64,000 bases of DNA from Amphiscolops sp. MND2022 (lineage: Eukaryota), in NCBI GenBank assembly GCA_964187785.1, contig OZ076409.1, forward strand, positions 24,616,001 through 24,680,000. The letters are read 5' to 3'. The position numbers and the translations under genes are program-made. Of this stretch, positions 13,320-38,477 are shown piece by piece. Under the pieces are notes generated by a model. It did no database searches and was not told where the DNA came from. It was given only the letters and a program-made list of their open reading frames with translations. Each line of letters begins with the position of its first letter. Positions within the stretch are counted from its first letter, which is position 1.

Positions 13320-13874
13320 AAACAAGCCGGGACCGGCCCAAGTCGGCGCCATATCCAAGGCTCAAAAATAGCAAAAAGACTTCCAAGTGTCAAGTATTCT
13401 TTTACAGTACTCGAAAATCAAAAATTTTTCGAAAATTTTCTTTTTGAAAAAATTTTATACTAAAAAATGGACCGAGTGGCGCGCCGGGGCCCGCTAGCGC
13501 GAGCCCCTGCCGCGCTAACGTCTCACAATGCCGAAAAACTGAAAGGAGGGACCCTTTGAGGTTTTTCAACATCCATTCTGTCGCAAAACATCGAAAAAAT
13601 GCAGGGGGACCCTTTGAGGAAAAAAAAATTCCGAAAAAAAATGTCTCGCAGTGCCGAAAAAAATTAAAGAGGGGACTCTTTGGTATCGCCCGGTATGGTA
13701 TGTTACGCGGAAAATCAGGTAAAACCATTTTGGTCTAGTTCGCTAGGCCAAATGGTGCAATTTGACACCATAATATTTTGTAGAACTTTTAAGAACTATT
13801 TTGGTCAGTTCGTGTGGATAGAAAAAAAGTCACTATAATAGTCGCGTTTCACTTCATGAAGCGCAGACTGAAAA
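13320..13874 (-). mobile_element. Helentron-type repeat nested in Tc1
   Basis: AACAAGCCGGGACCGGCCCAAGTCGGCGCCATATCCAAGGCTC ... CACTATAATAGTCGCGTTTCACTTCATGAAGCGCAGACTGAAAA; closely similar to 41363-42044. Confidence 0.8.
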
Positions 13875-13931: not shown

Positions 13932-15413
13932 TCAAAATCGGGAAATGAATCCATAACTAGAAGCAACTGCTTCTAGGCGCTCGGGAAAGCTGTCATAAAG
14001 TTTTTGAACAGTCTCTAACTCGATCGAATTCCAAATTTCTTGCACTTTTTCCTCTAAATTCTCCCATGAAGCACTTTGTTTTGCCAATCTTTTCTTCACA
14101 ATTGCCCAAAAGTTCTCAATAATGTTCAGATCAGGGCTGTATGGTGGCCAATCCAGTACTTCCCATTCTTTTTCGCGGAATAAAATCTTGATAATTGAAG
14201 CTTTATGAGTGGGCGCATTGTCTTGTTGAAAAACTAAGCCCGGAAAATGCAATTTTTCGTTGTAATCTTTCAGAACATCAAGATAACTGCTGCTTGTTGG
14301 GGTATTGGGGCATTTAACCAACATTTTCTGGCCATCCGATCGAATTGCACCCCCCCCCCCCCCAAAAAACATCAGCGATCGTCTGTCAGTTGTCACATTT
14401 TTGACGTTTTTTTGCGCATAACGAGTGTTTTTTTGCGAAAAACACGAACAATTCCGTCACTTTTGAACTTCACTCGTGTTTCATCAGTGAACACTACAGA
14501 ATACCAATATTCAGCTGATTTTTAGTCGGCGCGTTTTCCTTTTAAGGAAAAATGCCCGACTATAGCAGTGACCTTTTTTTTCTTTTTTTCTTCAGACCAC
14601 AATCCTCACACTGATCGGTCCACTTTTTACAATTCTCAATTCTGCGCAGAGCACCTGAGGCCAAGTCCGCCCAAGGCAAACTTTACTCCAAAGGGTCCCC
14701 CCTTTCATTTTTTACTTTTTCAAGGAAACATACAAAACCGGACGTGCCCAAAGGGTGCTCCCTTTGGATTTTTTTCGGAACTGTGCGACTTTTTTCCGAA
14801 ATTTTTTTTTGAAAACAAAACGGAATATTTGGTAATAAATCCAGAAGGGTCCCCCCTTTTACATTTTTCGGCACTATGCGACTTCTTTTGAAAGAAATTC
14901 TTTTTTCAAAAATTTCAATTATTTTCCAAAAAAAGTGTTTTACGCTTTTTGAGCCTTAGATATGGCGCCGACTTTAGACGTTCTCGTCTTGTTTATTCAT
15001 TTTTTGTGACCATTTTTTCCGAAAAGCAGCAGACGTTTTTTGATGCTGATCTTTTTGGCCGCAACTCTGCTAAAAACGCCATGTTTTCTCAATATTCTTC
15101 TCACAGTTGTTCTCGAAATTGATTCTTTGGTCAAAAAGGAATTGTATTTAACCCGAATTCTCTCCAGAGTTGTTTTGGGATCTTTGAGAACATCTTTGAC
15201 CAATTTTCATTGGTTTTTTTTCGAGAACTTTGGAGGACGACCAGTGGATTTTTTTGGTAAATAACTTTTGTTTTTGTTGTAGCGCCAAAAAACTGATTGG
15301 GCCGTTGACTTGGCTTTCAAACCTCATTCATCTGCAATTTTCTGATACGAAAATTCTGCTTTTTTCAACGTAACAATTTGACAAGCAATAAAAGAATCTA
15401 TTGGTGCTGGCAT
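13932..15413 (-). pseudogene. Tc1 transposase pseudogene
   Basis: ATG at 15413 (MPAPIDSF...), TGRPPK linker, WYSVVFTDETR, QQDNAPTH...WPPYSPDLNIIE with 34 residues between D and E. Contains stops, frameshifts and the 14519-14993 insertion. Confidence 0.9.
14519..14993 (+). mobile_element. Helentron-type repeat inserted in the Tc1 transposase ORF
   Basis: TTTTTAGTCGGCGC ... GGCGCCGACT...GTCTTGTT. Removing it restores the frame KWSQKMNKSAEYWYSVVFTDE at a T-run, with no TSD beyond the Ts. Confidence 0.85.
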
Positions 15414-15924
15414 TTCCACTATGTTTTAACGTTGAAACAAGTGAAATGATTTCACGAATTTTTGTTAGCAAAGAAAATTTTTGAAAATTTCTTCAGCTTT
15501 GAAAGCCGCATTCAACATTTTGGAACCATACTGTATAGAACAACCTTGTGCCAAGAGTTCATACGTAACATCAGAGAGGAGTTTGATAAATTTGGATGGT
15601 CCAATTCAAAGTGTTAATTTGAAAATTGGACAGGTTTGAAGTTTTATGAAAAACAAAAGTAAGGAGAGAAAGTAAGTTGTAGAAAATGAATAGTTCCAAA
15701 TGTAGACATGTGTGAAGTCAAAACATTAAAGATATGCTCCGAACGATATAACAAAGCATTTACTGCTGAGAGAAGTCCTGTAGAAATGGGTAAGTGAGTG
15801 GAAAAGTAAGTGAGTTGAAAAATGTTTCAACATCTTGATCACTATTTGTGTGAGTAGGAAGAGAATCGCATTATGTAGTAATTCTTCCTTCGAGGATTGA
15901 GTTCAAAAAATGACAGACTCTGGA

Positions 15925-17749
15925 TGTGATGATCGGCCTTCTCATGTCTGTTTTCATTTATAATGATGGATTCGTCCAATGTGTTTTCAGTAATCCCAAG
16001 GGGAGTGTATGGTTGTCTTAATTCACTCATTTCAGATGGATAGAACCGATCATCCTGATTCTTATTTTTGTCTAGAGCTGTGTTTGATGCGTGTTTGTTT
16101 CTGAGACCCTTATTTTTAGAGTTAGAAGGACCAGGTTGGTTATTCTCGGCATCCTCCTCATCAGTTATTACTATGTAGTTTTTGTTTGTTCTAATCTCCT
16201 TAAGTATCTCTTCAAATTTGTTGTTTAGATGCTCTTCAATCTGCGACATCTTGTCGTTGTTCTGTTCTGTTAGTCTTTGCGAAATAACTTCTATCTCATT
16301 GCTTATTTGAGACGGTTCTGTTAGTTCACTGCCTAAGTTCCTGTCAAAAATATTGTTAACATTTTCAGAAACATTATTTAAAGTCGCATTACCTTGTGCT
16401 AAACTAGTTTCTGGTGTATTTTCGTCTCTGTCTGAAGACTGAGATGTAGTTCTTCTTGTCCTTCTATTCCTCCTGTTCCCCATGTTGAAAACAGTTTTGA
16501 TTGAAGAAAATCTTTGAATTTCAAAGATATAGGGTGAAATGAAAGTTGGGAATTATTTTACAGAAAAGAGAACTGTAAATTCAGAAACTGCAAAGTTGTT
16601 TGGGTTTGAATTTGAACAACTGTTCTGTTCGAGTGTTATGTAGCGAATGATCGTGGAAAAAATGATTTTTAAGGGGGTCCTTCTCAAGTGATTTTATTGG
16701 GCGGTATTTTTAGTTGCATGACCATCAAATTTACTCAAATCATCATAACGTCATATATCTAGGGTCAAATGTTAAAAATATGATATTACGTCAGAATCCT
16801 GGAAGGTCCAAATATAGCACTGGGACTCACAACAGCATAACACTAAGAATTCTGCAAATTATGCTGTTTTACATCATAATGTAGTATATGCAGTCTCATG
16901 AAATCCTCATAATGCAGTATAATTTTACCAACTGAAATAAGAATCATTATGCTGCTTTTCAGTTAAAACTTCATACTGTTTTTGTCAGGTTTCCGCATAT
17001 GCTGCTCCCGTATTGAAACGTCATGCTGTTTCCACGGGATTTCCGCATATGCTGTTTCCGATCTGAACCATCATGCTGTTTCTGCTAGATTTCCGCATAT
17101 GCTGTTTTCAACTCAAGTCGTCATGCTGTTTTTGTTGAATTTCCGCATAATGCAATACAAAGCATGAACTACACTGCGCATATATTGATTATGCTGTTTC
17201 TTTAATAAAACCGCATATGCTGTTTCTTTAACAAAACCGCATATGCTGCTTCATGAAAACCGCATAATGCCGCATAATCAGTATCAAATAGATGTACTAG
17301 ATCATTATGCTGGTTTCTAAATGAATCATCATACTGTTTTTGATCATTTTCTTCATGATTGAACTACAAACGCTCTGATGTGGTACAGATGTAAAAGACT
17401 ATTGGATTTAATTCCTTTCTATGATTTAGGATGGTAAAACAAAGGTTTAGCACTGTATTGGTAACTTAGGTGTTACCTTTCCAGTTATTTTTCAATTATT
17501 CAAAGCACCTTATGGGTGAAACAATAACAACAGTAACGACATTCAGCAATCATCATTTTAGATGAAATGTACAAACGAAAGCAACATTTTATTAAACGAA
17601 CAATAACCAACATTGTTTAAGTTTAAAATTTGAAATGTTCATTGAGTTCCTGTCCATATTCGGGTAGACAGCTACGATGATGGGTAAACAGCGTTGACTG
17701 CTTCACTGATGTTGCACCCCGGACATCTCGCACGGGTAGGTCGGCGACA
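15925..17749 (-). repeat. 3' LTR (1825 bp) of the 17-kb element
   Basis: Direct repeat of 31147-32971; about a dozen substitutions seen by eye (~99% identical). Confidence 0.97.
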
Positions 17750-18649
17750 GTCCAGCATTTTTGAAGCAGATCAGCGCTGCTCCAAACCCATCAACAAATG
17801 CTCTTGATCTCACATTGCGATCGCGAATTGTTTCGTCAGGATATTCGGACCACGCAACATAATGAGTGAGCGTCTCGACGGCGATTTGGTCATAAGTTTT
17901 GGAACAGCCTGCACAAAAGCCTGCCACTTCAGGCATCACTGGAGGGTTCATTTGCAATATGGGTCCGTTAGGTGGTCCCTGAGACTGAAACTGAGCTTGA
18001 CCATTGAAGTGTTGTTGAGGACGTGTAATATTGTTCCAATTATTTGGGTAAAATGGAACGGGCATAGGTAAGTAATTTGCTTGCATAGATGGGTGTGCTT
18101 GTATTTCTGGAGCCCTTCGTTGTTCGGGTATTACTACTGAGAAGGCGCTCCTGTTGCTTGGCACAAGAGGGGGATTTACTGTCTCCCTTGTCACTTGAGG
18201 GGTTCTGACCATGGGTTGTACCCTTTGAACTGGGCGGCCATAGCTGTTCCTTCCATTCTGCTCCACATTAGCGAAATTGGCACCAAAGAACGGATCATCT
18301 TCTTCTGATGATGAACCGATAAAGGTCAGGGAGGATATATTAGATATATCATCCATGAGGTCCATTAGCTCGTTCTCAATCTGGGAGCCCCTGGTATCGA
18401 TTTGTTGGCCAACACTTCCTTGTGGACTGACACTGTTAGGGAATAGCATTGCACCTGCTGCCCCATAAAGGCTGTGGACATGTCGGTTAGAGGGTATGGG
18501 GCAGTTCTAAATCTTTCATCGAGGTCATTCACTGAGAGGGGTTCCACCATAAATTCCTCTCCCGAACTGCTCGAAATGTTGATCAGATCCACCTCATGGT
18601 TCATCGGGTCAGTTCTACTAGCGATGGAGTTTTGTGGTGTGCTTTCCAT
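17703..18649 (-). CDS. Accessory ORF (~315 aa) of the 17-kb element, function unknown; ends inside the 3' LTR
   Basis: ORFs 18365-18649 and 17703-18449 join with one added base at ~18462. S/N/Q/P-rich N-terminal part, then FCAGC and a helical-looking C-terminus. Confidence 0.6.
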
Positions 18650-20452
18650 TGTTTGATTTTAGATTTATTTGGTTCCAGCCAAGTTTCAAGAAATTTAGCA
18701 CATAATGATCATCAAATTCTCAAGGAATTTGTCAAATGGAAAGAAGAAAATAAGCAACTAATTTTTGGAGATTTTTGATCAGAATGATAAGATTTTATAG
18801 TTTTCTATTGGGTTACGGGGGTTTTCTTACAAATAGCACCAAAACATATCTCGAATTACCCATTTCCCGGGTTTTCAGGTAATTTATCATGAGATATGAG
18901 GGGAATAGCACCGGTAAAGTTGTTAATATCATATAAACAATCATCCTATTCTGAAATTCTCTTTTCAATTTCTTTCATGTTCCGATTGCCGTCTTCACAT
19001 TCCGTCTGGTTTATTTTAATTACTCATAATTAAATAAACCGTAGGTTCATTCAGGTTTATCAAAGTGAAAGTTTTCACACCTTCTTTTGACGAACCAATT
19101 TGATTCATATTTTCATCAGCACGTGACATGTAATATAAAACAAATAGTCATTTGCATCATACGCCGCATACTGAAATCATCATAATGCATCATAATTCTA
19201 TCCATCAGTTCTATTATCATTATGCTGTTTATCATTATGCATCATTATGCAGTTCGTTATGCTGCTCATCATTCTTTTCCGCATAACCATCTTATGCTGT
19301 TTTCTGCAGTTCACCGCACAATGTGACGAACCATTATGCTGGTTTATCACTGTATCCGCGTGAAGCTGTCATCCTGTCGGCCATGTTGTTTCAGTCTCTT
19401 TTTAATTTCATGTACTGTTCAACTGTGATTTCCAAATAACTATATTATGCTGTTTTGTAAACTTTCCGCATAACAGCATCACGCTGCTTTGTAAATTTTC
19501 CGCATAATCCATTTCCTGCGTGTTAACAGCGTATGCATATTAACTTGGTCATACTGGCAGATATTTCCAAGCCGCATACACTCTCTCAGCCAATCAGATT
19601 CAAGGTGAATTGTGTATAATGTGAAATTGACGTCATTCATTTGCTTTATTGCCTTCATGTTATTTGCCACGCCTTCCAAGATTGTTTCTTCTTTGATTCA
19701 CATATTGTCTCAAGTTTCTGAGTCTTTATCTTTTCACAGTCTTTGTGTTTTCATAGTCTTTCCTTCGTCGTTTAACAGTCTCACGAGGATTTTTACTTCA
19801 ATCTTCTTCTACTTCCTTTATTTCTTTTAGTTTCCATCGTTTGTCAAATTTATTTACAGTTTTCGTCTTTTCCAAACCTCCATTCTTCTTCGTTTACCAG
19901 TTGCAATCGCTTTTCGAGTGCTGCTGCTTCTCGTTATTGAAATTTGGATTTACCACAAAGGGGTTTCAATTTCTATTCTGTGGAAACTTATTCTACAATG
20001 GAAGGGAAAGAGGCCGGCCAAGAAAGAAGCGAAGAGCCAACACAAGGTCTGTATTTTTGAGATTCTTCCCGTCCAACTTAATTAAAATAGGGCGAAGATT
20101 TGGTTTCACACAATCATCGAAGGATCTTTTGAATATCCTGTTCCGATTGTTGAACAAAATTTCAGTTTTCACCAACTATTCGCAGGTTGAATTCCGGATT
20201 TCCTGTTTCAAGTCGTGAATAATTTTTTCGAACTAGCTAGTCCTGTTTGTTTAAAGTGAGAGTTGATCAGGCTCCCACTATCTTAAACAGTCAATTCTTT
20301 GGCTGTCCCAATTTTCTATATTTGCTGATTTCATATTTGTTTCAGCTACACTCACTTCTGCTTTTCCGGCTCAAGATCCGCTCTCCACAGCTGATTTCAC
20401 CCCTTTACTTCCCTTTGGTAACCCAACTCATCATTCGACACCAGATCATCAA

Positions 20453-23400
20453 ATGGAATGCAATGAAGGTTCAAAATCTTTTGTCGATATAGACGGTATA
20501 AGGCATTCCTTTGATACTAGCATCCATGTTTCAAGTTCTGATGGGCCTCGTAGAGAAACCACTGTTAGCTTTCTTGCATCTGCTTCACGGGATGACACTA
20601 ATCCCCAATCCAAAGATGATATTGAGCAACCTTCCTTACATACTACGGGTCATTCAGAGAAGGACGATCATGAAGTTGAACCAAGTGGTTCTTCAGGGTC
20701 AACTTCACAAATGGGTAAAATTTGTCTTTCCCCATTTTCCACCTTCCTCAATCGGACCTCACAGGCCATTACCCCAAGAGCTATATCCCCTGTCGCTCAA
20801 ACATCCACCGCAACTGAAGCTGGGCAGCTTACTTCCTCAAGTAACTATGTTACCAGTCTGGACTTGTTGGCGTTAGAACAGCGCATGCAAGTTATGGTTT
20901 CTGAATTGACCACTTCTATTAGTTTAAAGCTTATAGAACAATTTACCGTACCCGCGTCACAGGCTCCTGGGACCTCAACAGGGACGGAAACCAGTGTGAC
21001 GAATATGGAGTCATCCTTGGTGGTGTCACCCGCCAGTACAACAGGGGGCCAAACCACACCCCCCGCAGGACCTTCTCGCAAAGGGAGAAGACAGACTAGG
21101 GCGAGAGAAAAGAGTACAGCCTGTACTAACCCAGGTGAACGACACTCAGCTTCCAAGCGGCCGCGACCAAGAATGCAATTGACAGGGAGTATGTACAGGA
21201 AACATCCCATCTTCAAGTTCTTCTTAACCGCACCAATTGATTCCACCAACAACCCTCATAAGTGGCCTTGCAGAGTTTGTCATATAGAATTGTCATTGAA
21301 GACTAAAGGTTCTCTCGAAATTCTCTCCCATTATAGAACTGACGCCCATTTAGTCCGTGAACACCGCATCAGGATGGAAACTCCTGGCATGCCACTTTAC
21401 GGAAAAAATGAGTTGGAGCTCACTGGGTCCGATTTAGTTGCGGCACGAGAGAAGGCTGAACTGGAAATTCCCATTGCTCCTATTCTTGGGGAATGTTACC
21501 TACTTGCTGGACAGCGCAAACTTCCTGTGCCGACTGATGAATTAGACCCAAGCACCACAATATGCTGCCAAATACGAATTCTGTTGATGGGTTGAAGTAT
21601 GGCGGTGACTTACATACTCTCACTTCCCTCTGGGGGAATCTCGGGCTTGAAGTCAGAGGACCAGTCAAGGTGCCTCAATACAGCTGGGATAAAGATCGCG
21701 TTTTTGTAAGTCTCTTCCTATCGTTTTGGTTGTCTTTTTAATTATCATTCTTTTAGGTAACCACATTTTGTTTTCGCAGGGAATCTTAGTCCACATGTTC
21801 CGCACTTTATTGTCTTACTCAGTTACAGCGATTGGTCAGTCGGGTCAATTCTCACTCCAACTTCACTCCAATCAGGATAATTCCCAAGTGGTCTTAACTT
21901 TCTGGTCTGGAAACGTATTCAACAATCTTTTACTAGCTGAAATCCCAAACAGCCTCATGATTGCGAAAGAAATTCTTCAGATCGTCAGTTCTTTTCTTGC
22001 TGCATTCCCGAGTATACCCCCTCTTTATTCACTCCTTGGCTTTGATGGACGTACCACCAAAACAATCATTACCGAATCCGTTCAGGTACCTACAGTGTGT
22101 GTGGTGCCCACCTTTTCGCACGAAGATTTGGACAAACTGTTAGCGGGACCCACTGTCAAGATCTTGGACCGCTATGACTATCACAGCGTACTGCAGTTTC
22201 TTCTGATGAAGTTGCGAACCGCTTCTGGGTCTACTTGGTTGAACGACCTTCCTGAACTCCGCAAAGTAATTTTTCTTTCCTACCCTTTTGGGCTTTGTTT
22301 CAAGGTTTCTACAGAAAATTGCTCGTTGTTGGTCATTCACAATCCGTATTCAACTGTTTTATCACTGTCAGGGGATTCATATAATATAGTATATTTGTTC
22401 CTATGCTGCGCTCTGAAAACCGCATAAAGAAGCATAACGAATAGACCATATAATATGGTATATTTGTTCCTATGCTGCGCTCTGAAAACCGCATGGTGAT
22501 TTCTTCTTATACTGTTTTCTCCTGAAAACCGCATAATGGTTTCTTCTTATGCTGCTTTCTCCCGAAAACCGCATAATGATTTCTTCTTATGCTGTTTTCT
22601 CATGAAAACCGCATAATGGTTTCTTCTTATGCTGTTTTCTCCTGAAAACCGCATAATGGTTTCTTCTTATGCTGTTTTCTCCTGAAAACCGCATAATGAT
22701 TTCTTCTTATGCTGTTTTCTCCTGAAAACCGCATAATGATTTCTTCTTATGCTGTTTTCTCCTGAAAACCGCATAATGGTTTCTTCTTATGCTGTTTTCT
22801 CCTGAAAACCGCATAATGGTTTCTTCTTATGCTGTTTTCTCCTGAAAACCGCATAATGATTTCTTCTTATGCTGTTTTCTCCTGAAAACCGCATAATGGT
22901 TTCTTCTTATGCTGTTTTCTCCTGAAAACCGCATAATGGTTTCTTCTTGCTGATTTCTTCTTCGTAATGCATCCTTCTATACCGTTTTCTCTAGAAAACG
23001 GTGTAGACGATATATTTTGTTCGTTTATGCTGTTTTCTTCTGGAAACCGCATAATGTGCATTATTTATGCTGTATACTGGTTGACATTCTATGCGGTGTT
23101 CGGAAAACCGCATAATGCATCAGAATTGCAGATTTTATTCCGCATTTTAAAGCGTTATCGTAGTATCATTCTAACATTGTTGTTTTAGGCCATATCCAGC
23201 CTCAACTACAGTCTTGTTGAGTCAGTTGTGGTTCTTGATCAGTTGTGTCGAAGTTGGAGCAAAGTCATCTCCCATCTCCGACTTGCCGACCGATTGAAGG
23301 CATTTAAGTACCATATGAAAGAGGTAATTTTCAGTTTATTCCTCCATTCTGCTTTCCTTTTCCGTCTGATTTTCAGTTTTTATTATTTTTCCAGCCCAAG

Positions 23401-24768
23401 AGTCTTGACGAAACTTTCTTCAAAGACAAGTCATACGCAGCCAAGTTATTCTTGATCCGAAATGTGCTTCTACACTGTTAGTTCTCTTTTCGCGGTAGTT
23501 TATTTTGGTCGGTATTTGATACTGTTACTCAGGTTGTTTTTAATCGTTACTTGTGTTCAGACAACTCTGCTTTCAAAGGGGTGAATGGAGTTTCCCCTCC
23601 TGACGGTTTCCGAGTATACAGCGCCTTTACTACATTTGTCTACAGTCAGCTACAATTTATATTACCTGACTCCTTCCTTGGCAACATCTCCAATTGGGAT
23701 CATTTTATGTCCATTGATCTCACTTCTCCAGATCTACCTATAAAGTCTGTTGCGGATTTCATGCAAAACAAGGACTTTGCCAAACTTGTTGCAGAAAGTG
23801 ATTTGCCGACCCCCACTCGGTTCGTTGAACAAGCAATATGTTTTTATAAAAACTTCTGCATCCTTCTTCTGAAGCATAAAGTTTCCAAGTCTAAGCTTGT
23901 CCGAGGATTTTCTGTGTTCGATGAAGCCGTTGTCCGTTACGGAGAAGAGCAGGACTATGCCCATGAATCTGAGTTACTTTGTGACTACTTGGTGCAGCAA
24001 AAATGGATATCTCACACAACCAAACCATTGGTCTTGAGCGAGTATGGAGCGTTTGTGGAGAAATTCAGATCCCAAAACATTTCTTATGAGGGAGAATGGA
24101 TCAGCTTTATGTCGAATTATTATGAACTTCAGTGTCGGGAGAATTTGTTTACAGTCTTCAAGCTGTGTACTCTGAGTTTGTCAGGGGTCCACATTATCCC
24201 TCCTGTTTTTACTGTTGAAATGCCCGAACTTGCATCTGATTTCCGTGAATTCCAGTCCTGTGTTAGGAGCATTCAGTCTTCTTTGGTTGGAGTGCCCAAT
24301 GTGTCTGAATTGTATGCCAACCCGAGAACTGTTTCTTCTGTTTTTTCTTTGCTCGGAAAAGGGCAGGCTCTACTAGAAGACGCTTATCTGTCAGTCTGGG
24401 ACCTTACTTCGTCATGTTCGTCCCGACGGCGGCTTATATTTAACCATTTCGATTCTCGGTACACTTGTACTATTTCCGATGAAGAGAAATCTTGGGTAGC
24501 GCTTCATGATAAGCCGCAATCAGCTAGTTCAAGTCCTGCTCAATCTCCTAAGACCCCTAGGCCTTCCAAATTTGTTGCTCCTACTCCCATTCAGAGCGGT
24601 CCAGAGCCAACTGGGGCAACAGGCAAGAACACCCGAAAATCTCCCGTGTTTGCAACATCTGCCCTTTCGAGTCCCCGATTTAGAGCGGACGTGCCGATCT
24701 TGCCAGAGTCCCAGCCTGTTGGGGTTAAGAAGTTAGTTGTCCGAAGGAAAGAAGGAGATAAGAACTGA
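20453..24768 (+). CDS. Five-exon antisense gene (~1054 aa): BED-type zinc finger + degenerate hAT-transposase-like body. Exons 20453-21705, 21780-22265, 23189-23323, 23395-23476, 23561-24768
   Basis: Four GT-AG introns (GTaagt/cgcAG, GTaatt/tttAG with CTAAC branch point, GTaatt/tccAG, GTtagt/ttcAG) join the ORF-track fragments in frame (phases 0,0,0,1). CRVC...HYRTDAH finger. One 1-nt frameshift at ~21584 and no internal stops. Confidence 0.75.
22484..22948. repeat. 40-bp tandem array (~11.5 copies) in intron 2 of the antisense gene
   Basis: Unit TTCTTCTTATGCTGTTTTCTCCTGAAAACCGCATAATG(G/A)T, preceded by a 69-bp-period duplication at 22378-22494. Confidence 0.95.
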
Positions 24769-25060
24769 AGAATTGACTTGAATTGACCATTGATGTTTCA
24801 TCTTGACTCTTGAATCTTCTATATTTTGCTGATTTGATGTCTGTTTTGTTTGTATGATTATTTTCTCTTTTTTGGCTGATTACGCCTCATTTGATGTTTT
24901 CATTTGCCTCATTTGATTTACCTCCAGTTTGGAGAGAAAAAAATGATAGCTTCCAATTTTGACTAGAAGTGAGATAAAGAACGAAGAAAAAACATGAGAG
25001 AAAGAAAGACGAAGGAGATCATAGTATATAATTCAGTCTCTGAGTCTCTTGATTTGTTTT

Positions 25061-28000
25061 TTAATATCTGTATGAGTCTGAGTAGTTTGGGTTAGGGTTT
25101 GGGCGTAGGTTATATTTTTCGCCTCTTGTGTTAATGGTTTCTTCAATGTGTGCGTCATTTTCTGGGTTGATTTCGGGAGTTTTTGGGGAATTTTGGGTAG
25201 GGTTTTCTCGAATGTCTTCTGGATTTCTGGAAGTTTCTGGAATGGGCTCATGGTTTTCATTTTCTGAGGAAGTTTTTTCGGTTATTTGAGGTTCTGTGTC
25301 GATCGCAGCAGGTTGTCCTGCTGGGATCCCCCCACTATTTTTTGAATTATCGAGGGAGGGAGGGTGGTATATTTTTGGTTGAGAAGTAGGTTCATATTCC
25401 ACTGTGTCTTCTTGTTGATCACAGATTTCGTGGTCAGTATCGAATGGACTGCTGCCAAAAGTACTGTCCCAAGTATGAGCATAAAGATCATCTTGTGAGA
25501 CAAGTGTATCCTCTTTCTGCCAGTCAGTTTCTCTGACAAAGTTATCTGCAAGAGGAGCTTCTGGAGTGTATTTTCGTAGTCTAATGCGGTGGAGTAGTTG
25601 GGTTTTATTCGTGCCCAATCTGCGAACAATATAATTATTGTTCGGTAGGACTTTTTCAACTTTATATGGACCAACCCAACGAAATTCACGAAAAGGTATC
25701 TTCGTTGCTTGTGTGTCAGCTTTTGGATTCAGGATAAAGCAAAAATCCTCTGTCGTTAGAGGTGATGCCTTTGCTTTCCTGTCGTAATATGCTTTATATT
25801 TGAGGTAAGATTGCATGATGTTTTTCTTCGTTTGATCGTGAAGTAAAGCAATCCTTCTTTGTACTTCCTCTGCTACCTCCGTTTGGGGTTGGAAGCGAGG
25901 ATTTGGGTTATACCCCAGTTTGAAGTCTAGTATGTTGTGCGGAATTCTTCCATGGAAGACCCGAGTAGGTTCACATCCAAGTGTTGCGTGGTAGGTTGTA
26001 TTATGGTTTAAGACTGCCAATGGTAGAAACTTGTGCCAATTGTTTCTAAATTCGCCAGTGGCTGCCTTAAGGTGCGCTTTAACTGATGCATGAGTACGTT
26101 CTAAGAGTCCAATTGTTTGGGCGTGTTTTGTCGTTGCATGTTTTAGTTCTATGTTCAGGACTGCAGCTACTTCTTTTGTTACCTGAGAATTAAATTGAGT
26201 GCCCATGTCGGTAATAATTGTTGTGGGTAGATATGTGTGTTTACACAAAATGTCCATGATGATTTTTGCCACTGCTGGAGCAGTGATTCTCGTGACTGGG
26301 TAGGCAAACAAATAGCGTGAGAACACGTCTATTGCGGTGATGATGTTGTCATATCCTCCGCTTGGTGGGAGATTGGGAAGGATGTCCATTTGTAGGATGT
26401 CCTCTGGGCCCAAATCCCATTCGGGGCAATTTAGTAGTTCCGTTTTAAGTAAGTCATTGTTGATCCGTTTGTTTTGGATGCACATTTGACATTTTGTCAC
26501 CCAATTTCGGATATATTTGGCGATGCACGGGTAGTAGTATTTTTGTCGTGCTTCTTGGATCATTTTGGTTATTCCCGGATGATTTGCGTTATGACCATGA
26601 AGGGCATGAAGGAATTCGTCCAGGAGTTGTTTGGGTAAAAGGATTTGATAATGGGATATAAACCCAGTGTCATTGTAGTATCTTCTTGTTAGGACATCTT
26701 GCTTGATTTCAATCCTTGTGATGTTTTGTAGATAATGTTTGTATCGGTAGTCTTGTGTGAATAGGGTTTCGTCGAAGGGTTCGCCTTCAATTTTGGCTCT
26801 CAAATTGCGTAGAACTTCATCATTGTTTTGTTCTAAACGTATTTTTGCATTGTCTTTGAAGTGTCCCTCCCCATAGTTGATGGTTCCCGCAGTGGGCTTG
26901 TGGAAGGTTTGGAGTTCAGACACTTCATTTTCTGGTTCATTGTGGGTTTCGGTTTTTGCTGATTGACGAATTGCTTCTTTTTCTTCCCATAATTGTTGTT
27001 CTGTGGGGCATTCACCGGGGAAAATATATAGGAGTTCCTCTTCGGCGACCCCAGTGGACTGTATGTTAACTTCTATTGCTTTTGTATTAACATCATTACG
27101 GATGTTCATTTCAAGTTTTTCTGTAGGGTTCCATTCAGCGCGCGATAGGAAGTCTGCAGCCGTATTCATGGCTCCGGCAACATGTGCAATGACGAAGTTG
27201 TATTGGAGGACGTAATCGCATGCGTTCCAAAGAGCCGGAGGAATGATTTTTGTTTGGAAAAAGCGTGTTACGGATCTAATATCTGTGAAGACGATAACAG
27301 GGAAGACGCTTCCCCACATTAAGTGTCCAAATTCAGAAAACGCAAAATAGATGGCTAGGAACTCTTTTGCGTATATTGACATTTTCAATTGGGTTGTGTT
27401 AAAAGTTTTTGAACCGAAAGCTATTGGAGCATAGGTTTTTCTTCTAGATTGTAGCTTTTGGTCGGGGTCATCTTCAATCATGATTGCATATCCTGCAGCT
27501 GTGAAGCTGGCATCGGTCATCAATATGAGTTGTTTATTTTTAATCGGTTGTTTCAGAGCAAGTTTGCATGATTGTTCCAGTTGTTGGTTGAGATTTTTGA
27601 ATGCTTCTAGAATTGTATCCGGAATGGAAAATTGTGATGTTTGTTTGAGCAATTTGAAAAAAGGAGTTAGTTTTTCTGATAGGCGAGGGATGTAGTTTCT
27701 GTAGTAGTTGAGAAACCCAATATATCTTTGGAGTGCTTTTTTGGATTTCGGAAGTTTAAGTTTTTGAAGGAATTGTTTGACTTTTTCGGTTTGGAGTGAG
27801 ACTCCTTGTGGGGTAATTGTTCGACCCAAGAAGTCAACTTGTTTGACTCCGAAATGGCATTTGGCCATCGTAAGCTTGAGTCCTGCTTTGCGTATGCATT
27901 CAAAGACTGTTTTGATGTTGATGCAAAGTTGGGTAGAATCATTTGCAGCAATGCCGAGGTCATCAACATATTGAGCGCACTGATCAGCTTTGATTGCCTT

Positions 28001-30051
28001 GTCCAAATATTCTCTCATAAAGGATGAGAAAGCAGACAGGGATCGGCTGAGTCCTTGTGCGAGGCGACGATATGCGAATGTTCGGCTCGCGAAGTTAAAG
28101 GCTAGCATCTGTATGGACTGATAGTCTGCCATTTGCAAACAATGGTATGCTTGAGAGCAATCGAGTTTGCAAAAAAGTTTTTTACCAGCCATATGTTGTG
28201 CTGCATCTGACAACGTGCTAACTGGGTGATTGTTGTTCACGTAGTCTTGAGTGATGAGGTTGTTGATTTTACGGAGGTCCACCAAAAGTCGAAGACGTCC
28301 ATTTGGTTTCCTCTGAGCAAAAATAGGGCTTTTGTATTTAGAGAACGGTAGGGTCGTGATGATTCCATAACGATGAAGAAGGGCCAGTTCAACAGTTATG
28401 TCGTCCTTGAGGTTGATGAGAGTAGGAAGACTTTGACTGTAGGCTGGTCGGTCATCATTCGGAGTCAGTTTGACCTTGAATTCTCTATTGGTACCTATAT
28501 CAAAACGATGTCTAGCGAAGATGTCGTGATATTGTACCAGAATGTCTTCTATGTGCTGTTTTTCGAATGGGCTCAGGGTGGTGTCTGTCCAGTCGAAGTG
28601 ACCGAGAAATTTCCTTCTTGATTCATCGTTGTCGTTTGGGTTTAATTGTTCTAGTTGTTTGAGTTCTAGTAGCTCATCATATATGCGTTGTTGTATTGGA
28701 GTATATGTGTCTGGGTCCCCAGGTTCTTCAGGCGTTGGGAACCAGTAAGTTTCTTGTTCGTCTGATGATTGATTTGTTTTCATCAATTGGTTGAGGTATA
28801 AATCTGTGTTTTCTATGTGTTGGTGCATCATGAATGTGAGGGTTGATGGATCAACAGGTTTGATGTGTTTAATCTGTTCTGGCGTGAGGACTCGGAAATC
28901 TGCCATTGTGTATCCGTTGGGATGGTGTAGGGCATATCCGAAAAGTTGATCACTTGGTAGCCCACTGCATTGTTATTAACCGTACTCAGGGAAGATGCAA
29001 TAAAAATATTTTCATGTTCTTCCATGTGTGAAGACGGAGTTACAATGCCTGTGGCATTGTGATCTATCAGGTGTGGCATTTTGCTGGAGATTGCAAGGGT
29101 TTCGCCAGGTTGTAGGGTATATGAAGTTTCTGTTAGAAGAGGTGTTGTTGTTCGGGTATTTGTTGTGTGATCTGGTCGTAGTTGCATGGACAAGTAGGGG
29201 AAGGTAATAATCCCCTGTTGTATATCAAACATAGCGTTGTGTCTTTGTAGGAAACACAGGCCGATTAATGGGTTGGGTAGCACCTTCATGACGATGAAGT
29301 TTTCTTGAAATTGGAAGTCTGCTACTTCAAACTGGAGTAAGACGGTGCCGATAGGTCGCTCAAGTTGACCATTGGCTACCATGATTTGAAAATTGGGTGC
29401 TGGACCAGTATCTTTTATGGCTTCGTTTGAAAGGAGCTTTATTTTGTTAAGGTCTTCTTCAGAGATGGCGCTTGTGAGTGCGCCGGTATCAATGAGTCCA
29501 TCCAGAGTTAATTTCTCGAAATCCATTGGGAAATAGTACATATGACGCTTCTTTTTGAGGGTAAGATTTGTAGAAAGGTTTAGGTATGCGACGTTATTAC
29601 CTTCATCTGTTGTGAGGTGGTTAAAAACGTCAGCATCAAGGAGGGGTTGTTTTCCATGAGACGCACTGAAGAGGGTTTTGGTTAATTCTGATGTGATGTC
29701 ATCGTCAGTTTGGGTTGTCGATGTAGATTGTACGTTTGATTGGTCAGTTTGTGTTTCTTGGGGTTGTGAGATTGTGGGTTGTTGATTTTGTATTTCGGGT
29801 TCAATTTCGGGTTCGAATATATGTCGTAGTAGATAATTATGTGGGGCATCTTTGAGTAAGTCATAGAGATCTTCCGTTGGAGTGTTTGGAATGGTATTTT
29901 GGGTGTCTGTAGTGTGAGAGTCGTTTTTATTAGTGTGGTGATCAAAGACTGTGGTTTTTATTGGTTTTGGGCTCTGCTGATGCTGCCAGTCATCAGTTGA
30001 GAGTTGTTTTTGTGGTGTTTCGTTTTGAAGGCGTGGCTTTATTAGTTTAAA
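25061..30051 (-). CDS. pol: Pol: protease, dUTPase-like segment, RT, RNase H, integrase with GPY/F motif (one 1-nt frameshift at ~28906)
   Basis: LIDTGALTSAI; YVDD; LMTDASFTAAG; HGHNANHPG...CQMC; QMDILP, TDMGTQF, GLLERTH; WVGPYKV. The frame is open from the slippery site at 30051 to the protease. Confidence 0.95.
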
Positions 30052-31705
30052 TCCTTCGATGTTGAAGGTTCAGGGGTTCGAGGGTTGATTGGTTTGTTTG
30101 ATTTTTTATATTCTTCGATTAGTTTTTTCTGGGTTTCAGTGAGTGTCCATTTAGGTGGACGATTTTCCATGTTAGCTCCAAGTAACAGTTTGGTTCCTCA
30201 TGACCAGGAGTGTTATAATGGGAACATCTTGGTGCATCTGGATCTTGATCCATTTTTTGTCGCTTTGCAAGTTTTGGGCACTCTTTTGCTATGTGGCCTT
30301 CATCCTTGCAGTATCGGCATTGGTTATCTTGAAGTGTGTTGTTGGGTACTGTGTTTGGGGTTTTTGTTTTTGTTTTTGTGTTTTGTGAGGGTGTTTTAGT
30401 GTTTTGGGTGTTGGTTTGTTTGACTGCCGTCATTTGAGTTTTCACTAGGGGCTCATCCGCTTCGAGTCCATTGAGCTCCATCTCTCTTTCTAGATGTTTC
30501 ACTATTTGTTCATAGGTACCGTTTTCGAGGTAAGCCTGGTTGATTGATTTTTTGAGATGAGGGGGCATTTTTGCATATATCAGGCTCTCAATCATCTGTG
30601 GTGCTGCTTCACCGAAAGCTTTTTCAGCGCTTTCTTGGAGGTCTTCAAGAAAGTCGGGTAGTTTTTGGTTTTCTGGTTGGAACATAAGTCTGTTAAATCT
30701 GTGTTTTGCTGAGGCGCTGGATTCGGGCTTAACATATTTCCTCCTGAAGACTACTAGTATGTCTTCAAGTGTTGTTGTCGGAGTTCTTTGAATGTTTTTG
30801 AAAGTTTTCAATGCTAGTCTTCTTAGATGAGCATGGAAATGGTTGATTTTCATGTCCTCCGTGAGGTGTGGTTGCATTTTGAGTGTTGTGTGGAAAAGGT
30901 CTTCAAAATACTCGAATTTTTCATTTTTCTCTAATTTCCCGTTGAAAGTAAGCGTATTCTTCGGGTGGAAAAGAGATGGTTCTGTATTTCTTCGTGCAAG
31001 ATTTTCGATTGCTATGGCAATTTGGCTGACGGGATCTGTTTGCTCAGGATGCTCGAGAGGAGTTTGTGCGTGTGGTCCTTGTGTATTTGTGATGTTGGAG
31101 TTAGTCGAACTTTGTCTCAGAATGTTCTTGGTAGGTCCTGTCACCATGTGATGATCGGCCTTCTCATGTCTGTTTTCATTTATAATGATGGATTCGTCCA
31201 ATGTGTTTTCAGTAATCCCAAGGGGAGTGTATGGTTGTCTTAATTCACTCATTTCAGATGGATAGACCCGATCATCCTGATTTTTATTTTTGTCTAGAGC
31301 TGTGTTTGATGCGTGTTTGTTTCTGAGACCCTTATTTTTAGAGTTAGAAGGACCAGGTTGGTTATTCTCGGCATCCTCCTCATCAGTTATTACTATGTAG
31401 TTTTTGTTTGTTCTAATCTCCTTAAGTATCTCTTCAAATTTGTTGTTTAGATGCTCTTCAATCTGCGACATCTTGTCGTTGTTCTGTTCTGTTAGTCTTT
31501 GCGAAATAACTTCTATCTCATTGCTTATTTGAGACGGTTCTGTTAGTTCACTGCCTAAGTTCCTGTCAAAAATATTGTTAACATTTTCAGAAACATTATT
31601 TAAAGTCGCATTACCTTGTGCTAAACTAGTTTCTGGTTTATTTTCGTCTCTGTCTGAAGACTGAGATGTAGTTCTTCTTGTCCTTCTATTCCTCCTGTTC
31701 CCCAT
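30042..31705 (-). CDS. gag: Gag (starts inside the 5' LTR; one 1-nt frameshift at ~30180)
   Basis: ORF 30119-31705 has a capsid-like region (LTFNGKLEKNEKFEYFEDLF...) and knuckles CRYCKDEGHIAKEC and CSHYNTPGHEEPNC. Adding one T continues the frame to STSKDLN-stop at 30042. Confidence 0.9.
30045..30051 (-). promoter_or_regulatory. Putative -1 ribosomal frameshift heptamer U UUA AAC at the gag/pol junction
   Basis: The minus strand GAT TTA AAC TAA ends gag; the -1 frame is open and in frame with the protease. Confidence 0.75.
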
Positions 31706-32971
31706 GTTGAAAACAGTTTTGATTGAAGAAAATCTTTGAATTTCAAAGATATAGGGTGAAATGAAAGTTGGGAATTATTTTACAGAAAAGAGAACTGTAA
31801 ATTCAGAAACTGCAAAGTTGTTTGGGTTTGAATTTGAACAACTGTTCTGTTCGAGTGTTATGTAGCGAATGATCGTGGAAAAAATGATTTTTAAGGGGGT
31901 CCTTCTCAAGTGATTTTATTGGGCGGTATTTTTAGTTGCATGACCATCAAATTTACTCAAATCATCATAACGTCATATATCTAGGGTCAAATGTTAAAAA
32001 TATGATATTACGTCAGACTCCTGGAAGGTCTAAATATAGCACTGGGACTCACAACAGCATAACACTAAGAATTCTGCAAATTATGCTGTTTTACATCATA
32101 ATGTAGTATATGCAGTCTCATGAAATCCTCATAATGCAGTATAATTTTACCAACTGAAATAAGAATCATTATGCTGCTTTTCAGTTAAAACTTCATACTG
32201 TTTTTGTCAGGTTTCCGCATATGCTGCTCCCGTATTGAAACGTCATGCTGTTTCCACGGGATTTCCGCATATGCTGTTTCCAATCTGAACCATCATGCTG
32301 TTTCTGCTAGATTTCCGCAAATGCTGTTTTTAACTCAAGTCGTCATGCTGTTTTTGTTGAATTTCCGCATAATGCAATACAAAGCATGAACTACACTGCG
32401 CATATAATCATTATGCTGTTTCTTTAATAAAACCGCATATGCTGTTTCTTTAACAAAACCGCATATGCTGCTTCATGAAAACCGCATAATGCCGCATAAT
32501 CAGTATCAAATAGATGTACTAGATCATTATGCTGGTTTCTAAATGAATCATCATACTGTTTTTGATCATTTTCTTCATGATTGAACTACAAACGCTCTGA
32601 TGTGGTACAGATGTATAAGACCATTGGATTTAATTCCTTTCTATGATTTAGGATGGTAAAACAAAGGTTTAGCACTGTATTGGTAACTTAGGTGTTACCT
32701 TTCCAGTTATTTTTCAATTAATCAAAGCACCTTATGGGTGAAACAATAACAACAGTAACGACATTCAGCAATCATCATTTTAGATGAAATGTACAAACGA
32801 AAGCAACATTTTATTAAACGAACAATAACCAACATTGTTTAAGTTTAAAATTTGAAATGTTCATTGAGTTCCTGTCCATATTCGGGTAGACAGCTACGAT
32901 GATGGGTAAACAGCGTTGACTGCTTCACTGATGTTGCACCCCGGACATCTCGCACGGGTAGGTCGGCGACA
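31147..32971 (-). repeat. 5' LTR (1825 bp) of the 17-kb element
   Basis: Direct repeat of 15925-17749; contains the gag start codon at 31705. Confidence 0.97.
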
Positions 32972-33940
32972 CTGGATGTGTGAAATTTTTTTGAAAAGGA
33001 GTGTGTCATAGCTTAATTGAGATATTGAGTGACTGACTCTGTGTGTAACTAAATAACGGAGAGGGTCTAACTTGGTTAATCCAATGACATAGAAGGGTTT
33101 GATGGACATATTTTGACCTGTGGAGTTGGACCTGTTACAAAAACGACCTAAAGTGTCAAAAGTTACAAAGATGTACTTATTATCCTATGTTGCAGAAGTT
33201 GCAGAAGACATTGGACCGTTGGTATCCATGGAGATTCATTATTCAAAAGGTGCGGCGTTTTCATACAATAAAAGACGAAGAGAAATATTGTGAGGTTGTA
33301 TAGAAAATTGTTTGTTTCACAGTTAACGCAGTCATGATAGAAAAATGAAAGCCTTAAAGGAGGATTCGGTAAGAAAAGAAGGTAATTGAACGTTTTCATT
33401 GATACTTTTCTACTAGTGTTGGCAAGAGTGAGATTGTTAGAAAGTCGATGAGAGGTCTTTGAATACGCGAGAGTTTGAAATGTATAATTGTATTAGGTGT
33501 GAGGTATTGTCAATATAATGATGTAAGAATTGTTCTAATTGGGTTTGGAGTTGAAGGTTTCTGTTTTCTGCGAAACCATTGGTAAAAAATGAAACAAGCC
33601 ATTCTCTTATTTGAGCTTGTAAAAATAATGGTAAGGTTACGAGTGTATCCGGAGGTAAGAAGAAATTGGAGGAGGTATTGGTAATGTATTTCCTTTATCA
33701 AGAAGAAGGAGAGTGAAATGATTTTTGTTTTCCGACCCCACAAATATATTTGGGGGAGGAAAATCATGATCTGTGACGCGTTTTTTTCCAAATTCTGCCC
33801 ACACTCCACTTGACTATCTCCATCCACTGGACTATCTCCAATGGAAACAGTAAAGAGAATGGATATTTCACTTGACAATTATACTTGACTATTTTTATAG
33901 TTAATATAGTCCAGTTGAAAGTTGACAATTTTAGTTACTA

Positions 33941-36911: not shown

Positions 36912-37291
36912 TTTTTAGTCGGCGTTTTGGAAGAAAATCCCGACTCTTACAGTGGCTAGTTTTTTTTTCGTCAGTTCAACGCGTAACGTCCACTTTTTGT
37001 GCATTAATCCAATTAATGCACATTTACCAACCTTTACCATATGTACTTAATACTTCATTTTCAACGCATCCAAAGCGTCTAACATGAGAAAAAGCGTCCC
37101 CCCCTTTTACATTTTCGGCACTATGCGACTTACCGGAAACTTCGAAAAAATTTCAAAAAAAATTTCGGAAATTTTTTTTCTCAATTTTTAGTTTTTTGAG
37201 AGCTTTTGTTGTCTCCAGTTGTAGAAAAAGTGGTTTTCGAGTCTTTTTGAGCCTTAGATATGGCGCCGACTTGGGCCGTTCCCGGCTTGTT
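36912..37291 (+). mobile_element. Helentron-type repeat (short copy)
   Basis: TTTTTAGTCGGCG...CCCGACT 5' end; GAGCCTTAGATATGGCGCCGACTTGGGCCGTTCCCGGCTTGTT 3' end. Confidence 0.85.
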
Positions 37292-38477
37292 TTTCAAGAC
37301 AAGGCGTTGATACAGGTTTTCAAAATTCATTCAACATTTGCATCGGCGAGTTGCCAATGAGAGGAGGTTTTTGCATGCATGTTAAATGATGGAATTTCAT
37401 AAACAATGATGCTACTATTTTTGGCGAAAATTGATTATACCCCTACATAAAGCAACAGCAAAAGCTGACATAATTTAGATAATTTTCGAGTTGTTGCTCA
37501 GCAGCAATAAAAACGTTTTTTGACGTAGCTTTTTTTTCATTTCAGTTTTCAGCTTTGAATGTTTAATTTTTCTCATTAGCAAGAAGAAAATCAAGTTGTT
37601 CAGACTAGAGTCAACGTATTCTGGTTTTAACAGCAATTTGTTTAATTCATACTTGGCGTTTGCAATAATTAATTCACGAACCGAGATCGTTTCTGAAGCT
37701 GCAGATCTCTGCATTTTCGGTTCGCTCAAAGTGCCGGTACCAACCACTGGTTGCTTGATAGGTCTTTGGTAAGCCAATAATTGAACCAACTTAAGTAACC
37801 AAAAACTAAAAGGCCCAAATATCGGATAAACATTATAAAACACATTATGAGTTTCAAAAAAGTCCTAAATCTAGATTTCGACGTGTTCAAAGTTACAGCT
37901 ATCGTGAAAAAAAACATCAAATATTTAAGACTGAAAAATAATCACTTGAACTGTAGCATCTGAACGGATACGTCGGGCATCAAAATTTAGCAACCGTGTG
38001 GCCTTTTTCAATCAGCATAAACGGTTGAAATTAAAGTTGTTGATAAGTAGTGGAGCTTTCCATCTGATGTTGAGAAACGCAGCTTCAAAAGAACCAAACT
38101 ACAAACAGTTTTTCTTTTGAAAAGTGTACAAACCTTTCATCTGAAGACAAAATTGGGTAGTAGTAATGAGTAAAAGAAATTGAGTAGAAGAAATGAGCGG
38201 TAGTCAAAGCAACATACATTGACAACAGACATAGTACTTCACCAATCTTCGTGCAAGATGCGCATTTTTTTCAACGGAAAAGTTTCAAGAGTTTTTTTGA
38301 AAAAAATTATTCAGTTCAAAATTGAGTGACACCAAACCGGACCCTTTGCTTTTCGGCACTGTTCGACTTTCATATTTGTTAGAAGGTTTCACCTCCAAAT
38401 CTTTTAATGTTTGAATCTACAGGAACCCTCTTTTTTGGTACTGCATGGCAGTCTTTGAAAAAAAATTATTTGCGAAT

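Follow-up and report, generated by a model that had tools for sequence, protein, structure and literature searches.

A Ty3/Gypsy retrotransposon with an antisense gene for a putatively hAT-derived protein and a dyad motif clustered in its non-coding parts

The window (the whole stretch of DNA analysed, 64,000 nucleotides) contains a 17-kb LTR retrotransposon that, judged from its sequence, is a Ty3/Gypsy element inserted recently (Table 1). Its two LTRs are 99.3% identical (13 mismatches), and the gene order found by Pfam search, gag followed by PR-RT-RH-IN, is that of Ty3/Gypsy. The gag start codon falls within the 5' LTR, and frame changes interrupt the protease and pol frames of this copy. 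A purine run (polypurine tract) was looked for upstream of the 3' LTR and none was found. The accessory open reading frame (ORF) on the sense strand encodes 282 to 315 amino acids in full-length siblings, stops 47 bp within the 3' LTR, and matches no Pfam family.

The antisense gene is broken in this copy by one frame break near position 21590. Its exon model is based on GT-AG sites and on the open frames flanking the break; in relatives (P0050), intron 2 is read through in frame. The N-terminus of the predicted protein is a 300-residue low-complexity stretch. Protein clusters comprise 78 members for gag, 45 for the sense ORF, 51 for exon 2, and 32 for the last exon. There are dozens of close copies of the antisense gene, often sharing contigs with this gag/protease: a gag, protease, or sense-ORF member is listed on 34 contigs, and 18 of these also carry an antisense-gene exon (including contigs of 26 and 37 kb), a linkage count that has no null and says nothing of distant families sitting in LTR elements.

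Table 1. Features of the element, in window coordinates
Feature	Position	Strand	Basis or remark
Target-site duplication, 5 bp, left	15920..15924	.	identical 5 bases at 32972-32976
Element, whole	15925-32971		
3' LTR, 1825 bp, TG...CA	15925..17749	-	pairwise comparison with 5' LTR
3' LTR (left) cluster	16833..17312	.	18 exact half-sites; 6 dyads at offset 21, 2 at 18
Sense accessory ORF, env position	17703..18649	-	broken in this copy
Cluster between divergent accessory genes	19164..19578	.	10 half-sites; 2 dyads at 21, 1 at 20
Antisense gene	19998..24768	+	six predicted exons, about 1,100 codons
Antisense gene exons (predicted)	19998-20046, 20346-21705, 21780-22265, 23189-23323, 23395-23476, 23561-24768	+	
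BED-like C2H2 finger, W-x-C-x2-C-x16-H-x5-H-x4-H	21260..21365	+	column conservation; Pfam; Atlas
Exon 3, RNase H-like fold (predicted)	21780..22265	+	model of relative P0050, residues 507-600
Intron 3 array	22402..23114	.	29 half-sites; 12 dyads at 21, 3 at 18
Last exon, helical part (predicted)	23561..24768	+	predicted model compared with Hermes 378-569
Protease and RT-RNaseH-integrase frames	25061..30069	-	Pfam RVT_1, RT_RNaseH, Integrase_H2C2, rve, gag-asp_proteas
gag	30119..31705	-	zf-CCHC match; ORF list
Candidate primer-binding site	31129..31146	-	abuts 5' LTR; TGG start exactly at LTR edge
5' LTR, 1825 bp	31147..32971	-	pairwise comparison with 3' LTR
5' LTR (right) cluster	32055..32534	.	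16 half-sites; end ~350 bp upstream of gag start

The motif CMGCATA, counted on both strands, has 80 matches in the window, compared with 7.78 +/- 2.67 expected from 100 shuffles, none of which attained 80. An earlier note on this stretch had described dense clusters of the motif in the element and none elsewhere in the window; both observations are borne out, and the coordinates it gave are correct: 74 matches lie within the element, 73 of these in four clusters (19 to 31 per kb), and the 47 kb outside the element hold 6 (0.13 per kb). The clusters are confined to non-coding parts (73 of the 74 sites); the single unclustered match is at 21561, and the 6.1 kb of gag-pol have none. Two small gypsy elements in the window, too short for the antisense gene, contain one motif each. 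Of the four sites counted in the note, only three are independent, as the LTR clusters are one sequence copied (99.3% identity), and the array that it assigned to intron 2 falls in intron 3 of the six-exon predicted model. Tandem units of 50 and 26 bp build the 3' LTR cluster, and a 40-bp unit repeated 11.7 times builds the intron 3 array. The region between the divergent accessory genes is a candidate bidirectional promoter; CCAAT and TGACG words, a weak signal, flank its cluster on both sides.

The unit common to the three sites is a tail-to-tail dyad, YATGCTG-N14-CCGCATA, with spacers that differ by site. Its half-sites are offset by 21 bp in 26 pairs and by 18 bp in 7, and neither offset occurs among 210 half-sites outside the clusters. 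Inverted pairs, as noted earlier, are real within the clusters, but the overlapped pair CCGCATATGCTG is found only in the LTRs (five per LTR, one in the right LTR being a one-letter variant) and was rejected as the shared unit. With tandem copies collapsed by hand, there are six dyads at 21 compared with 0.38 expected (0 of 20,000 permutations; 1 of 20,000 for any single offset), whereas P is only 0.09 to 0.29 per site when any offset is allowed. The permutation result is compatible with descent of all dyads from one ancestral unit. Half-site polarity is constant, with TATGCTG and CCGCATA on the + strand. This counts against the reading proposed below, as a symmetric dimer would not require the same polarity. 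The folding energies of 14 dyads range from -1.7 to -11.2 kcal/mol, so base pairing is not the feature that has been kept.

The finger of the antisense protein has a mean column conservation of 0.87, compared with 0.23 for the N-terminus. Its identity is 65 to 97% across 37 relatives, dropping to 24% in the adjoining region (396-462), and the C2H2 ligands are retained in 32 to 35 of 38 relatives. This strongly conserved C2H2 finger, described in the earlier note as a BED finger, is only BED-like: Pfam zf-BED matches weakly (E 0.067) and in 2 of the 38. Its Atlas neighbours at 0.90 belong to zf-C2H2_12 (76% of members) and zf-BED (12%) clusters.

Based on predicted models, the antisense protein is likely derived from a hAT-type transposase and catalytically dead. 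Among 48,161 chains, Hermes is the top match to the last-exon model (Z 5.7, rmsd 4.8, 135 residues aligned), with a Z within 1 of those of unrelated helical bundles and actin-like kinases. The P0050 model aligns with Hermes 143-445 (Z 5.7, rmsd 8.0, 163 residues); integrases top its Foldseek list (E 0.006), and Hermes is found at E 0.018-0.027. The Hermes matches of these two separate models are colinear (143-445, then 378-569), both middling at Z 5.7. Foldseek gave no match at E <= 0.001 for the fold models and nothing below E 0.37 for the last-exon model. Pfam searches returned no family for exons 2 and 3 and nothing significant for the last exon or for 14 distant relatives, with no hAT family matched; PDB sequence searches gave no meaningful match, and an Atlas search with the last exon gave no usable one. 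A centromeric histone match from the PDB sequence search was rejected, having aligned to the low-complexity N-terminus.

Catalytic positions were placed by model topology, using Hermes residue numbering that we take to be correct. In this mapping, the first position, at the end of strand 1, is not acidic (no Asp in 28 of 28), and the second has Asp in 26 of 28; a Glu anywhere near the third is found in 6 of 44, and none is conserved downstream of the helical part. By these models, the protein seems to have lost two of its three catalytic positions, leaving the DDE triad apparently incomplete. An intact nested hAT element was rejected. In the search for terminal inverted repeats (TIRs), 1 of 26 candidate 11-bp inverted pairs had a 7/8 flank repeat in the 8-bp TSD test, but on its left the motif clusters fall outside this pair, and on its right there are none.

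Relatives at 54 to 68% identity appear to keep the motif and its spacing in the same intron, as deduced from peptides rather than DNA. Six of ten intron-3 read-through tails, which are not independent of each other, fit AAACCGCAT or TATGCTGTT, and four are negative. The tails hold eight motif sites compared with 0.56 expected (0 of 500 shuffles), and three of five such sites have their partner 18 or 21 bp away (chance of 0.073 per site); none of nine intron-2 read-through tails, taken as a control, has the motif. JGI metagenome, GTDB, and viral contigs contained no DNA of the relatives.

We propose, with a probability of about one half, that a Gypsy family domesticated a dead hAT-type transposase, which now regulates transcription of the family itself in the manner of VANC or foamy-virus Tas. 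The antisense protein likely binds the dyads of the LTR, of the internal promoter, and of the intron in its own gene, keeping the element transcribed. Hermes BED binds a quasi-palindrome cooperatively, and dead transposases are known as regulators (available parts of PMC10368747 and 10.64898/2026.08.24.746577, respectively). The protein-plus-site module suggested in the earlier note is partly supported: it gains from the fixed-spacing dyad at three non-homologous sites, the conserved finger, the likely hAT origin, and the apparent retention of the motif in the same intron of distant relatives. The clusters are placed unlike hAT subterminal repeats, and the motif appears to be shared across families, in contrast to the family-specific motifs of VANC. 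A hAT-like element would have entered a Gypsy ancestor in antisense orientation, and the introns of the antisense gene would survive in the retroelement because the packaged RNA is probably the opposite strand. The nuclease would have decayed and the finger been retained, with independent multiplication of the dyad in tandem units of 50, 26, and 40 bp. Each finger of a dimer may read one half-site, two helical turns apart, and binding would switch on the LTR and internal promoter, with positive feedback on the protein's own gene. The step of the proposal held with least confidence is that binding activates and does not repress. We put forward more tentatively, as less likely than not, that a clade of LTR retrotransposons captured and disarmed a hAT-type transposase, turning it into a sequence-specific transactivator or anti-silencer of its own that works through a two-turn dyad operator in LTR, internal promoter, and intron. 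The host in such a capture is a probable animal.

The main rival, though itself unlikely, is that a host transcription factor, e.g., a Runt-domain protein, recognises the arrays as enhancer sites and that the antisense protein acts otherwise. The sites would then have been multiplied to drive the LTR and accessory genes. Apparent retention of the motif across families is just as compatible with a host factor, and the clusters lie upstream of start codons, beside the CCAAT/TGACG words. AACCRCA, which we take to be the Runt-domain (RUNX) core and which is contained in AAAACCGCATA, occurs at 15 intron half-sites and 3 per LTR. However, it is missing from the entire intergenic cluster, from every TATGCTG half, and from five of eight left-LTR CCGCATA copies; there is also no cluster in the 47 kb outside the element, and the strongly conserved finger would be left without a role.

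We consider it improbable that the protein binds the dyads for DNA mechanics (pairing or protection of cDNA ends, steering of integration, or repression limiting copy number). The hAT BED domains do assemble the transpososome via subterminal repeats (available text of PMC10368747), and here the RNase H-like and helical body is retained, not the finger alone, but the clusters are not at the ends, lying instead 430 to 900 bp into the LTR and at two sites within the element, by start codons. Slightly more doubtful still is a neutral relic, i.e., subterminal repeats left over from an ancestral hAT insertion and spread through slippage and gene conversion. Tandem units are visible, and a single ancestral unit would explain the fixed polarity; however, the same half-sites and offset occur in three different tandem units with free spacers, and apparently also in relatives at 54 to 68% protein identity. 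The poorest candidate is that the units act as RNA hairpins that signal splicing, packaging, or export: either strand of the intron units folds at about -10 kcal/mol, polarity is fixed by strand, and the 3' LTR has no preceding purine tract, so RNA signals may be unusual here, but in the LTR and intergenic units the half-sites and their offset are kept with mostly weak pairing (-1.7 to -7.7 kcal/mol), and no Rfam match was found at E <= 0.1.

Plant DNA transposons (VANC, TnpA) and complex retroviruses (Tas, to our knowledge not transposase-like) have been shown to encode sequence-specific regulators of their own, and for antisense genes of plant Gypsy elements a regulator role has only been proposed. 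Here, protein, candidate site, and spacing come together, making the idea testable by one binding assay and one reporter. If domestication by the element is true, a retrotransposon, and not the host alone, can domesticate a transposase; a class I element would be run by a class II regulator, a VANC-like system would exist outside plants, and the persistence of antisense, intron-containing genes in LTR elements would be explained. If the binding is real, it adds a new finger-plus-operator pair. A literature search of partial coverage, with repeat databases outside it, found no antisense gene of hAT or BED derivation in any LTR element.

By the models, the protein appears to share with the hAT transposase Hermes the order of finger, RNase H-like domain, helical insertion, and C-terminal part, and the dyad is a candidate counterpart of the quasi-palindromic repeats bound by the Hermes BED (available text of PMC10368747). 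It differs from hAT transposases in the apparent loss of two catalytic positions, the lack of convincing TIRs, sites that are not subterminal, and the 300-residue low-complexity N-terminus. Spm TnpA and similar accessory regulators likewise came from a transposase by catalytic loss, but they either remain within the DNA transposon they came from or end up as host genes, whereas the carrier here is a retrotransposon (10.64898/2026.08.24.746577, where the available text has no match to the words LTR or retrotransposon).

Retand, a plant Tat-clade Gypsy element, also has a long region between pol and the 3' LTR with antisense ORFs and tandem arrays, and its antisense TRP28 is a predicted DNA-binding protein with a proposed regulatory role (PMC11963269). 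According to the available parts of that source, TRP28 has no known relative outside transposable elements, the Retand arrays are family-specific, and, unlike here, no LTR-shared motif is reported. Pfam found no TRP28 domain in the antisense gene. Tas binds DNA and is encoded in the region from pol to the 3' LTR; its response elements lie in the LTR and at the internal promoter of its own gene, and the candidate sites here are likewise placed; in contrast to Tas, which is on the sense strand, the gene here is antisense, with five introns, a transposase-like fold, and no env (available text of PMC8670036).

VANC of the Arabidopsis Mutator-like VANDAL elements is, like the protein here, an accessory protein encoded by its element, and its motif is dense in introns (including the intron of its own gene) and in intergenic and terminal non-coding parts, having been multiplied through tandem repeats. 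However, VANDAL is a DNA transposon rather than an LTR retroelement, and VANC motifs are family-specific 9-mers in one orientation, whereas here an inverted dyad appears to be kept across families (available text of PMC5735166). The protein here also looks hAT-derived. The CpG observed/expected ratio of the window is 0.93, and such slight CpG depletion in the host makes VANC-style DNA demethylation unlikely as the mechanism.

We conclude that the motif clusters of this 17-kb Ty3/Gypsy element are a real feature. CMGCATA occurs 80 times on the two strands of the window, compared to 7.78 ± 2.67 in 100 dinucleotide shuffles. Of these copies, 74 lie in the element, where four clusters (18, 10, 29, and 16) account for 73 and gag-pol contains none. 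The earlier note had located the clusters correctly, as a motif scan of the window confirms, and other DNA of the window has few copies (six in the 47 kb outside the element). Of the four sites it counted, however, the two in the LTRs are copies of each other, so the independent sites number three: LTR, internal, and intron 3 of the antisense gene. Two smaller gypsy elements of the window, too small to hold an antisense gene, contain one motif each and no cluster.

The unit common to all three sites is a tail-to-tail pair, YATGCTG, 14 bases, and CCGCATA; the overlapped form given in the earlier note is confined to the LTR. With at most one mismatch per half-site, pairs within clusters fall at offsets of 21 (26 times), 45 (10), 18 (7), and 28 (6), whereas 210 half-sites outside the clusters form three pairs in total, none at 18 or 21. 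The tandem units that contain the dyad measure 50 and 26 bp in the LTR and 40 bp in the intron, and its spacer differs in sequence from site to site. After tandem copies were removed by hand and one LTR used, six dyads remained at offset 21 versus 0.38 expected (0/20,000 permutations; 1/20,000 for any single offset from 8 to 40), a result that is also compatible with descent of all dyads from one ancestral unit. Each site alone has two dyads (P of 0.003 to 0.011 at 21, and 0.09 to 0.29 for any offset). A distance of 21 bp corresponds to two helical turns and would fit two fingers on the same DNA face. The two unlike half-sites keep a constant polarity, a feature that a symmetric dimer would not call for; cooperative binding of an unlike pair is described for the Hermes BED domain (PMC10368747).

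The motif can be followed into relatives, as bacterial-style gene calls run past the exon-3 donor and translate the start of the intron. The exon end is reached by 40 of 45 exon-3 proteins. Among 10 relatives below 90% identity with tails of at least 30 residues, six (54 to 68% identity) have intron-3 tails codon-compatible with AAACCGCAT or TATGCTGTT, giving eight sites versus 0.56 in shuffles (0/500); none of nine comparable intron-2 tails is compatible with either. Results were alike for two alternative motif pairs, one of which had 1/9 in the intron-2 control. The 7-mer scored 1.44 versus 0.42 on all intron-3 tails (0/300) and 0.53 versus 0.32 on the intron-2 control (39/300). Among five forward sites, the partner stands at an offset of 18 or 21 in three and at 19 in a fourth; the fifth lacks one. 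The four negative tails reach just the first 96 to 129 intron bases, and the first motif of the window copy lies 136 bases in. Judged from these peptides, the site appears to be old and linked to intron 3.

We propose, with a probability of about one-half, that a dimer of the antisense-gene protein binds the dyads and would thereby promote transcription from the LTR and from an internal divergent promoter. The LTR cluster ends ~350 bp upstream of the gag start, and the internal cluster lies 420 to 830 bp upstream of the antisense-gene start and 515 to 930 bp upstream of the sense ORF. Antisense orientation would let the introns survive reverse transcription. It is rather unlikely that the arrays are instead sites of a host factor. 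The intron motif in relatives fits that reading and the element's own protein alike, and a RUNX-like core covers the intron half-sites but none of the intergenic ones. A role of protein and dyads in DNA mechanics or repression is improbable. With CpG observed/expected ratios of 0.93 for the window and 0.99 for an older element, VANC-like removal of methylation is an unlikely mechanism; plain activation or shielding from repressive chromatin is more plausible. That the arrays are a neutral relic is slightly less probable than a role in DNA mechanics or repression, as a site apparently old and tied to an intron argues against a neutral minisatellite. Least probable are RNA hairpins, since the folding energies of 14 dyads spread from −1.7 to −11.2 kcal/mol, so that half-sites and distance are conserved and pairing is not.

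The protein is predicted to combine a BED-like finger with an RNase H-like and helical part. Searches returned 51, 44, and 43 relatives for exon 2, exon 3, and the last exon; a last-exon profile matched 285 representatives at E ≤ 0.001, some at ~20% identity, and all relatives with a source shown are ENA proteins without a name. Mean column conservation is 0.87 in the finger (toward which the search itself is biased), 0.55 at residues 396 to 462, and 0.23 at the N terminus. The four finger ligands are conserved in 32 to 35 of 38 relatives; Pfam zf-BED matched weakly in two of the 38 (E = 0.067), and Atlas neighbors of the finger at 0.90 include clusters of zf-C2H2_12 (76% of members) and zf-BED (12%). 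Among 48,161 chains compared with the model of the last exon (mean pLDDT, 62.6), Hermes transposase 378-569 ranked first (Z = 5.7; rmsd, 4.8; 135 aligned), with five unrelated chains within 1 Z; Foldseek had no match to this model below E = 0.37. The model of P0050, a relative (mean pLDDT, 51.3), has an RNase H-like sheet at 507 to 600. Foldseek ranked integrases first (E = 0.006), with Hermes at 0.018 to 0.027; in the VIA ranking, the top places went to kinases and folds of the actin-like type (Z up to 7.1), P-element transposase scored 5.8, and Hermes 143-445, with a score of 5.7 (rmsd, 8.0), had the longest alignment among the matches listed (163). Individually weak, these Hermes matches are colinear and follow a BED-like finger, which makes a hAT-type origin likely. 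With catalytic positions placed by the Hermes topology, the first is Asp in 0/28 sequences and the second in 26/28, and the stretch beyond the Hermes match has any Glu in just 6/44; thus, the protein is likely catalytically dead. A second large family of this protein type (P0274 and P0278 to P0291; 59 members, ~19% identity) also occurs on long contigs, as does the first.

Protein and sites would work like VANC/VANDAL (PMC5735166) and foamy-virus Tas (PMC8670036) but belong to neither system. In layout, the nearest counterparts are the Retand elements of plants, in which the antisense TRP28 genes and the arrays are presented without tested function (PMC11963269). Other reports describe conversion of transposases to regulators in DNA transposons and host genes (10.64898/2026.08.24.746577) and invertebrate Gypsy elements with extra ORFs (PMC6431247). 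No LTR element carrying a gene of hAT or BED origin appeared in the literature searched, which had partial coverage.

At 90% identity, clusters comprise 78 (gag), 21 (protease), 45 (sense ORF), 51 (exon 2), and 32 (last exon) members, fragments counted. With contigs told apart by their length, an antisense-gene exon is present on 18 of the 34 that have gag, protease, or sense-ORF members among those listed, a raw count without a null, drawn from 13 to 14 members listed per cluster beside the window's own and covering the close family. Contigs with both include ones of 26 and 37 kb. By this linkage, the antisense gene is judged to travel with the element within the close family. One 37-kb contig carries a sense-ORF sibling (>90% identity) and P0050, a more distant form of the antisense gene, hinting at module swapping.

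Features of the element and of the surrounding AT-rich host DNA (window positions)
Feature	Position	Strand	Remarks
LTRs	15925-17749, 31147-32971		1825 bp each; TG...CA; 13 mismatches between them
gag		minus	start codon within LTR
LTR part of gag frame	15925-16483, 31147-31705	minus	3' LTR copy, separate 213-aa ORF
Protease and RT-RNaseH-integrase		minus	Ty3/Gypsy order
Sense ORF at env position	17703-18649	minus	282-315 aa in full-length siblings
Antisense gene	19998-24768	plus	between pol and sense ORF; six predicted GT-AG exons
Two smaller gypsy elements	3430-8850, 56961-62736		decayed; 197-bp direct terminal repeats
Tc1/mariner-like transposase fragment	13932-14456		judged by eye
15-bp tandem array	38478-38877		26.7 copies; 98% matches; several frames open
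GPCR-like ORF	39431-40750		intronless; judged by eye
MITE-like dispersed repeats	2556-2841, 13312-13874, 14748-14997, 37092-37294		both orientations
Further members of this repeat family	41354-42043, 47574-48060, 62867-63059		

Going by the GPCR-like ORF, we read the eukaryotic host as probably an animal. The LTRs are bordered by a 5-bp duplication, and the first ~186 Gag residues are encoded by each LTR, as the frame begins inside it. In the antisense gene, the frame stays open for 432 codons and has a single break near 21590, and codons 414 to 1105 are open in another frame. Further breaks of this copy lie in gag, in the sense ORF, and around protease/pol. The sense ORF is proline/glutamine-rich, matches no Pfam family, and has a C-x2-C-containing terminal domain that extends 47 bp into the 3' LTR. 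A purine tract is absent before the 3' LTR (17750 to 17775), and plus-strand priming may be unusual. An 11-bp imperfect inverted pair at 19759 and 25018, around the antisense gene, with a 7/8 flanking direct repeat, was one of 26 candidates; it probably arose by chance, but may be a trace left by the original insertion.
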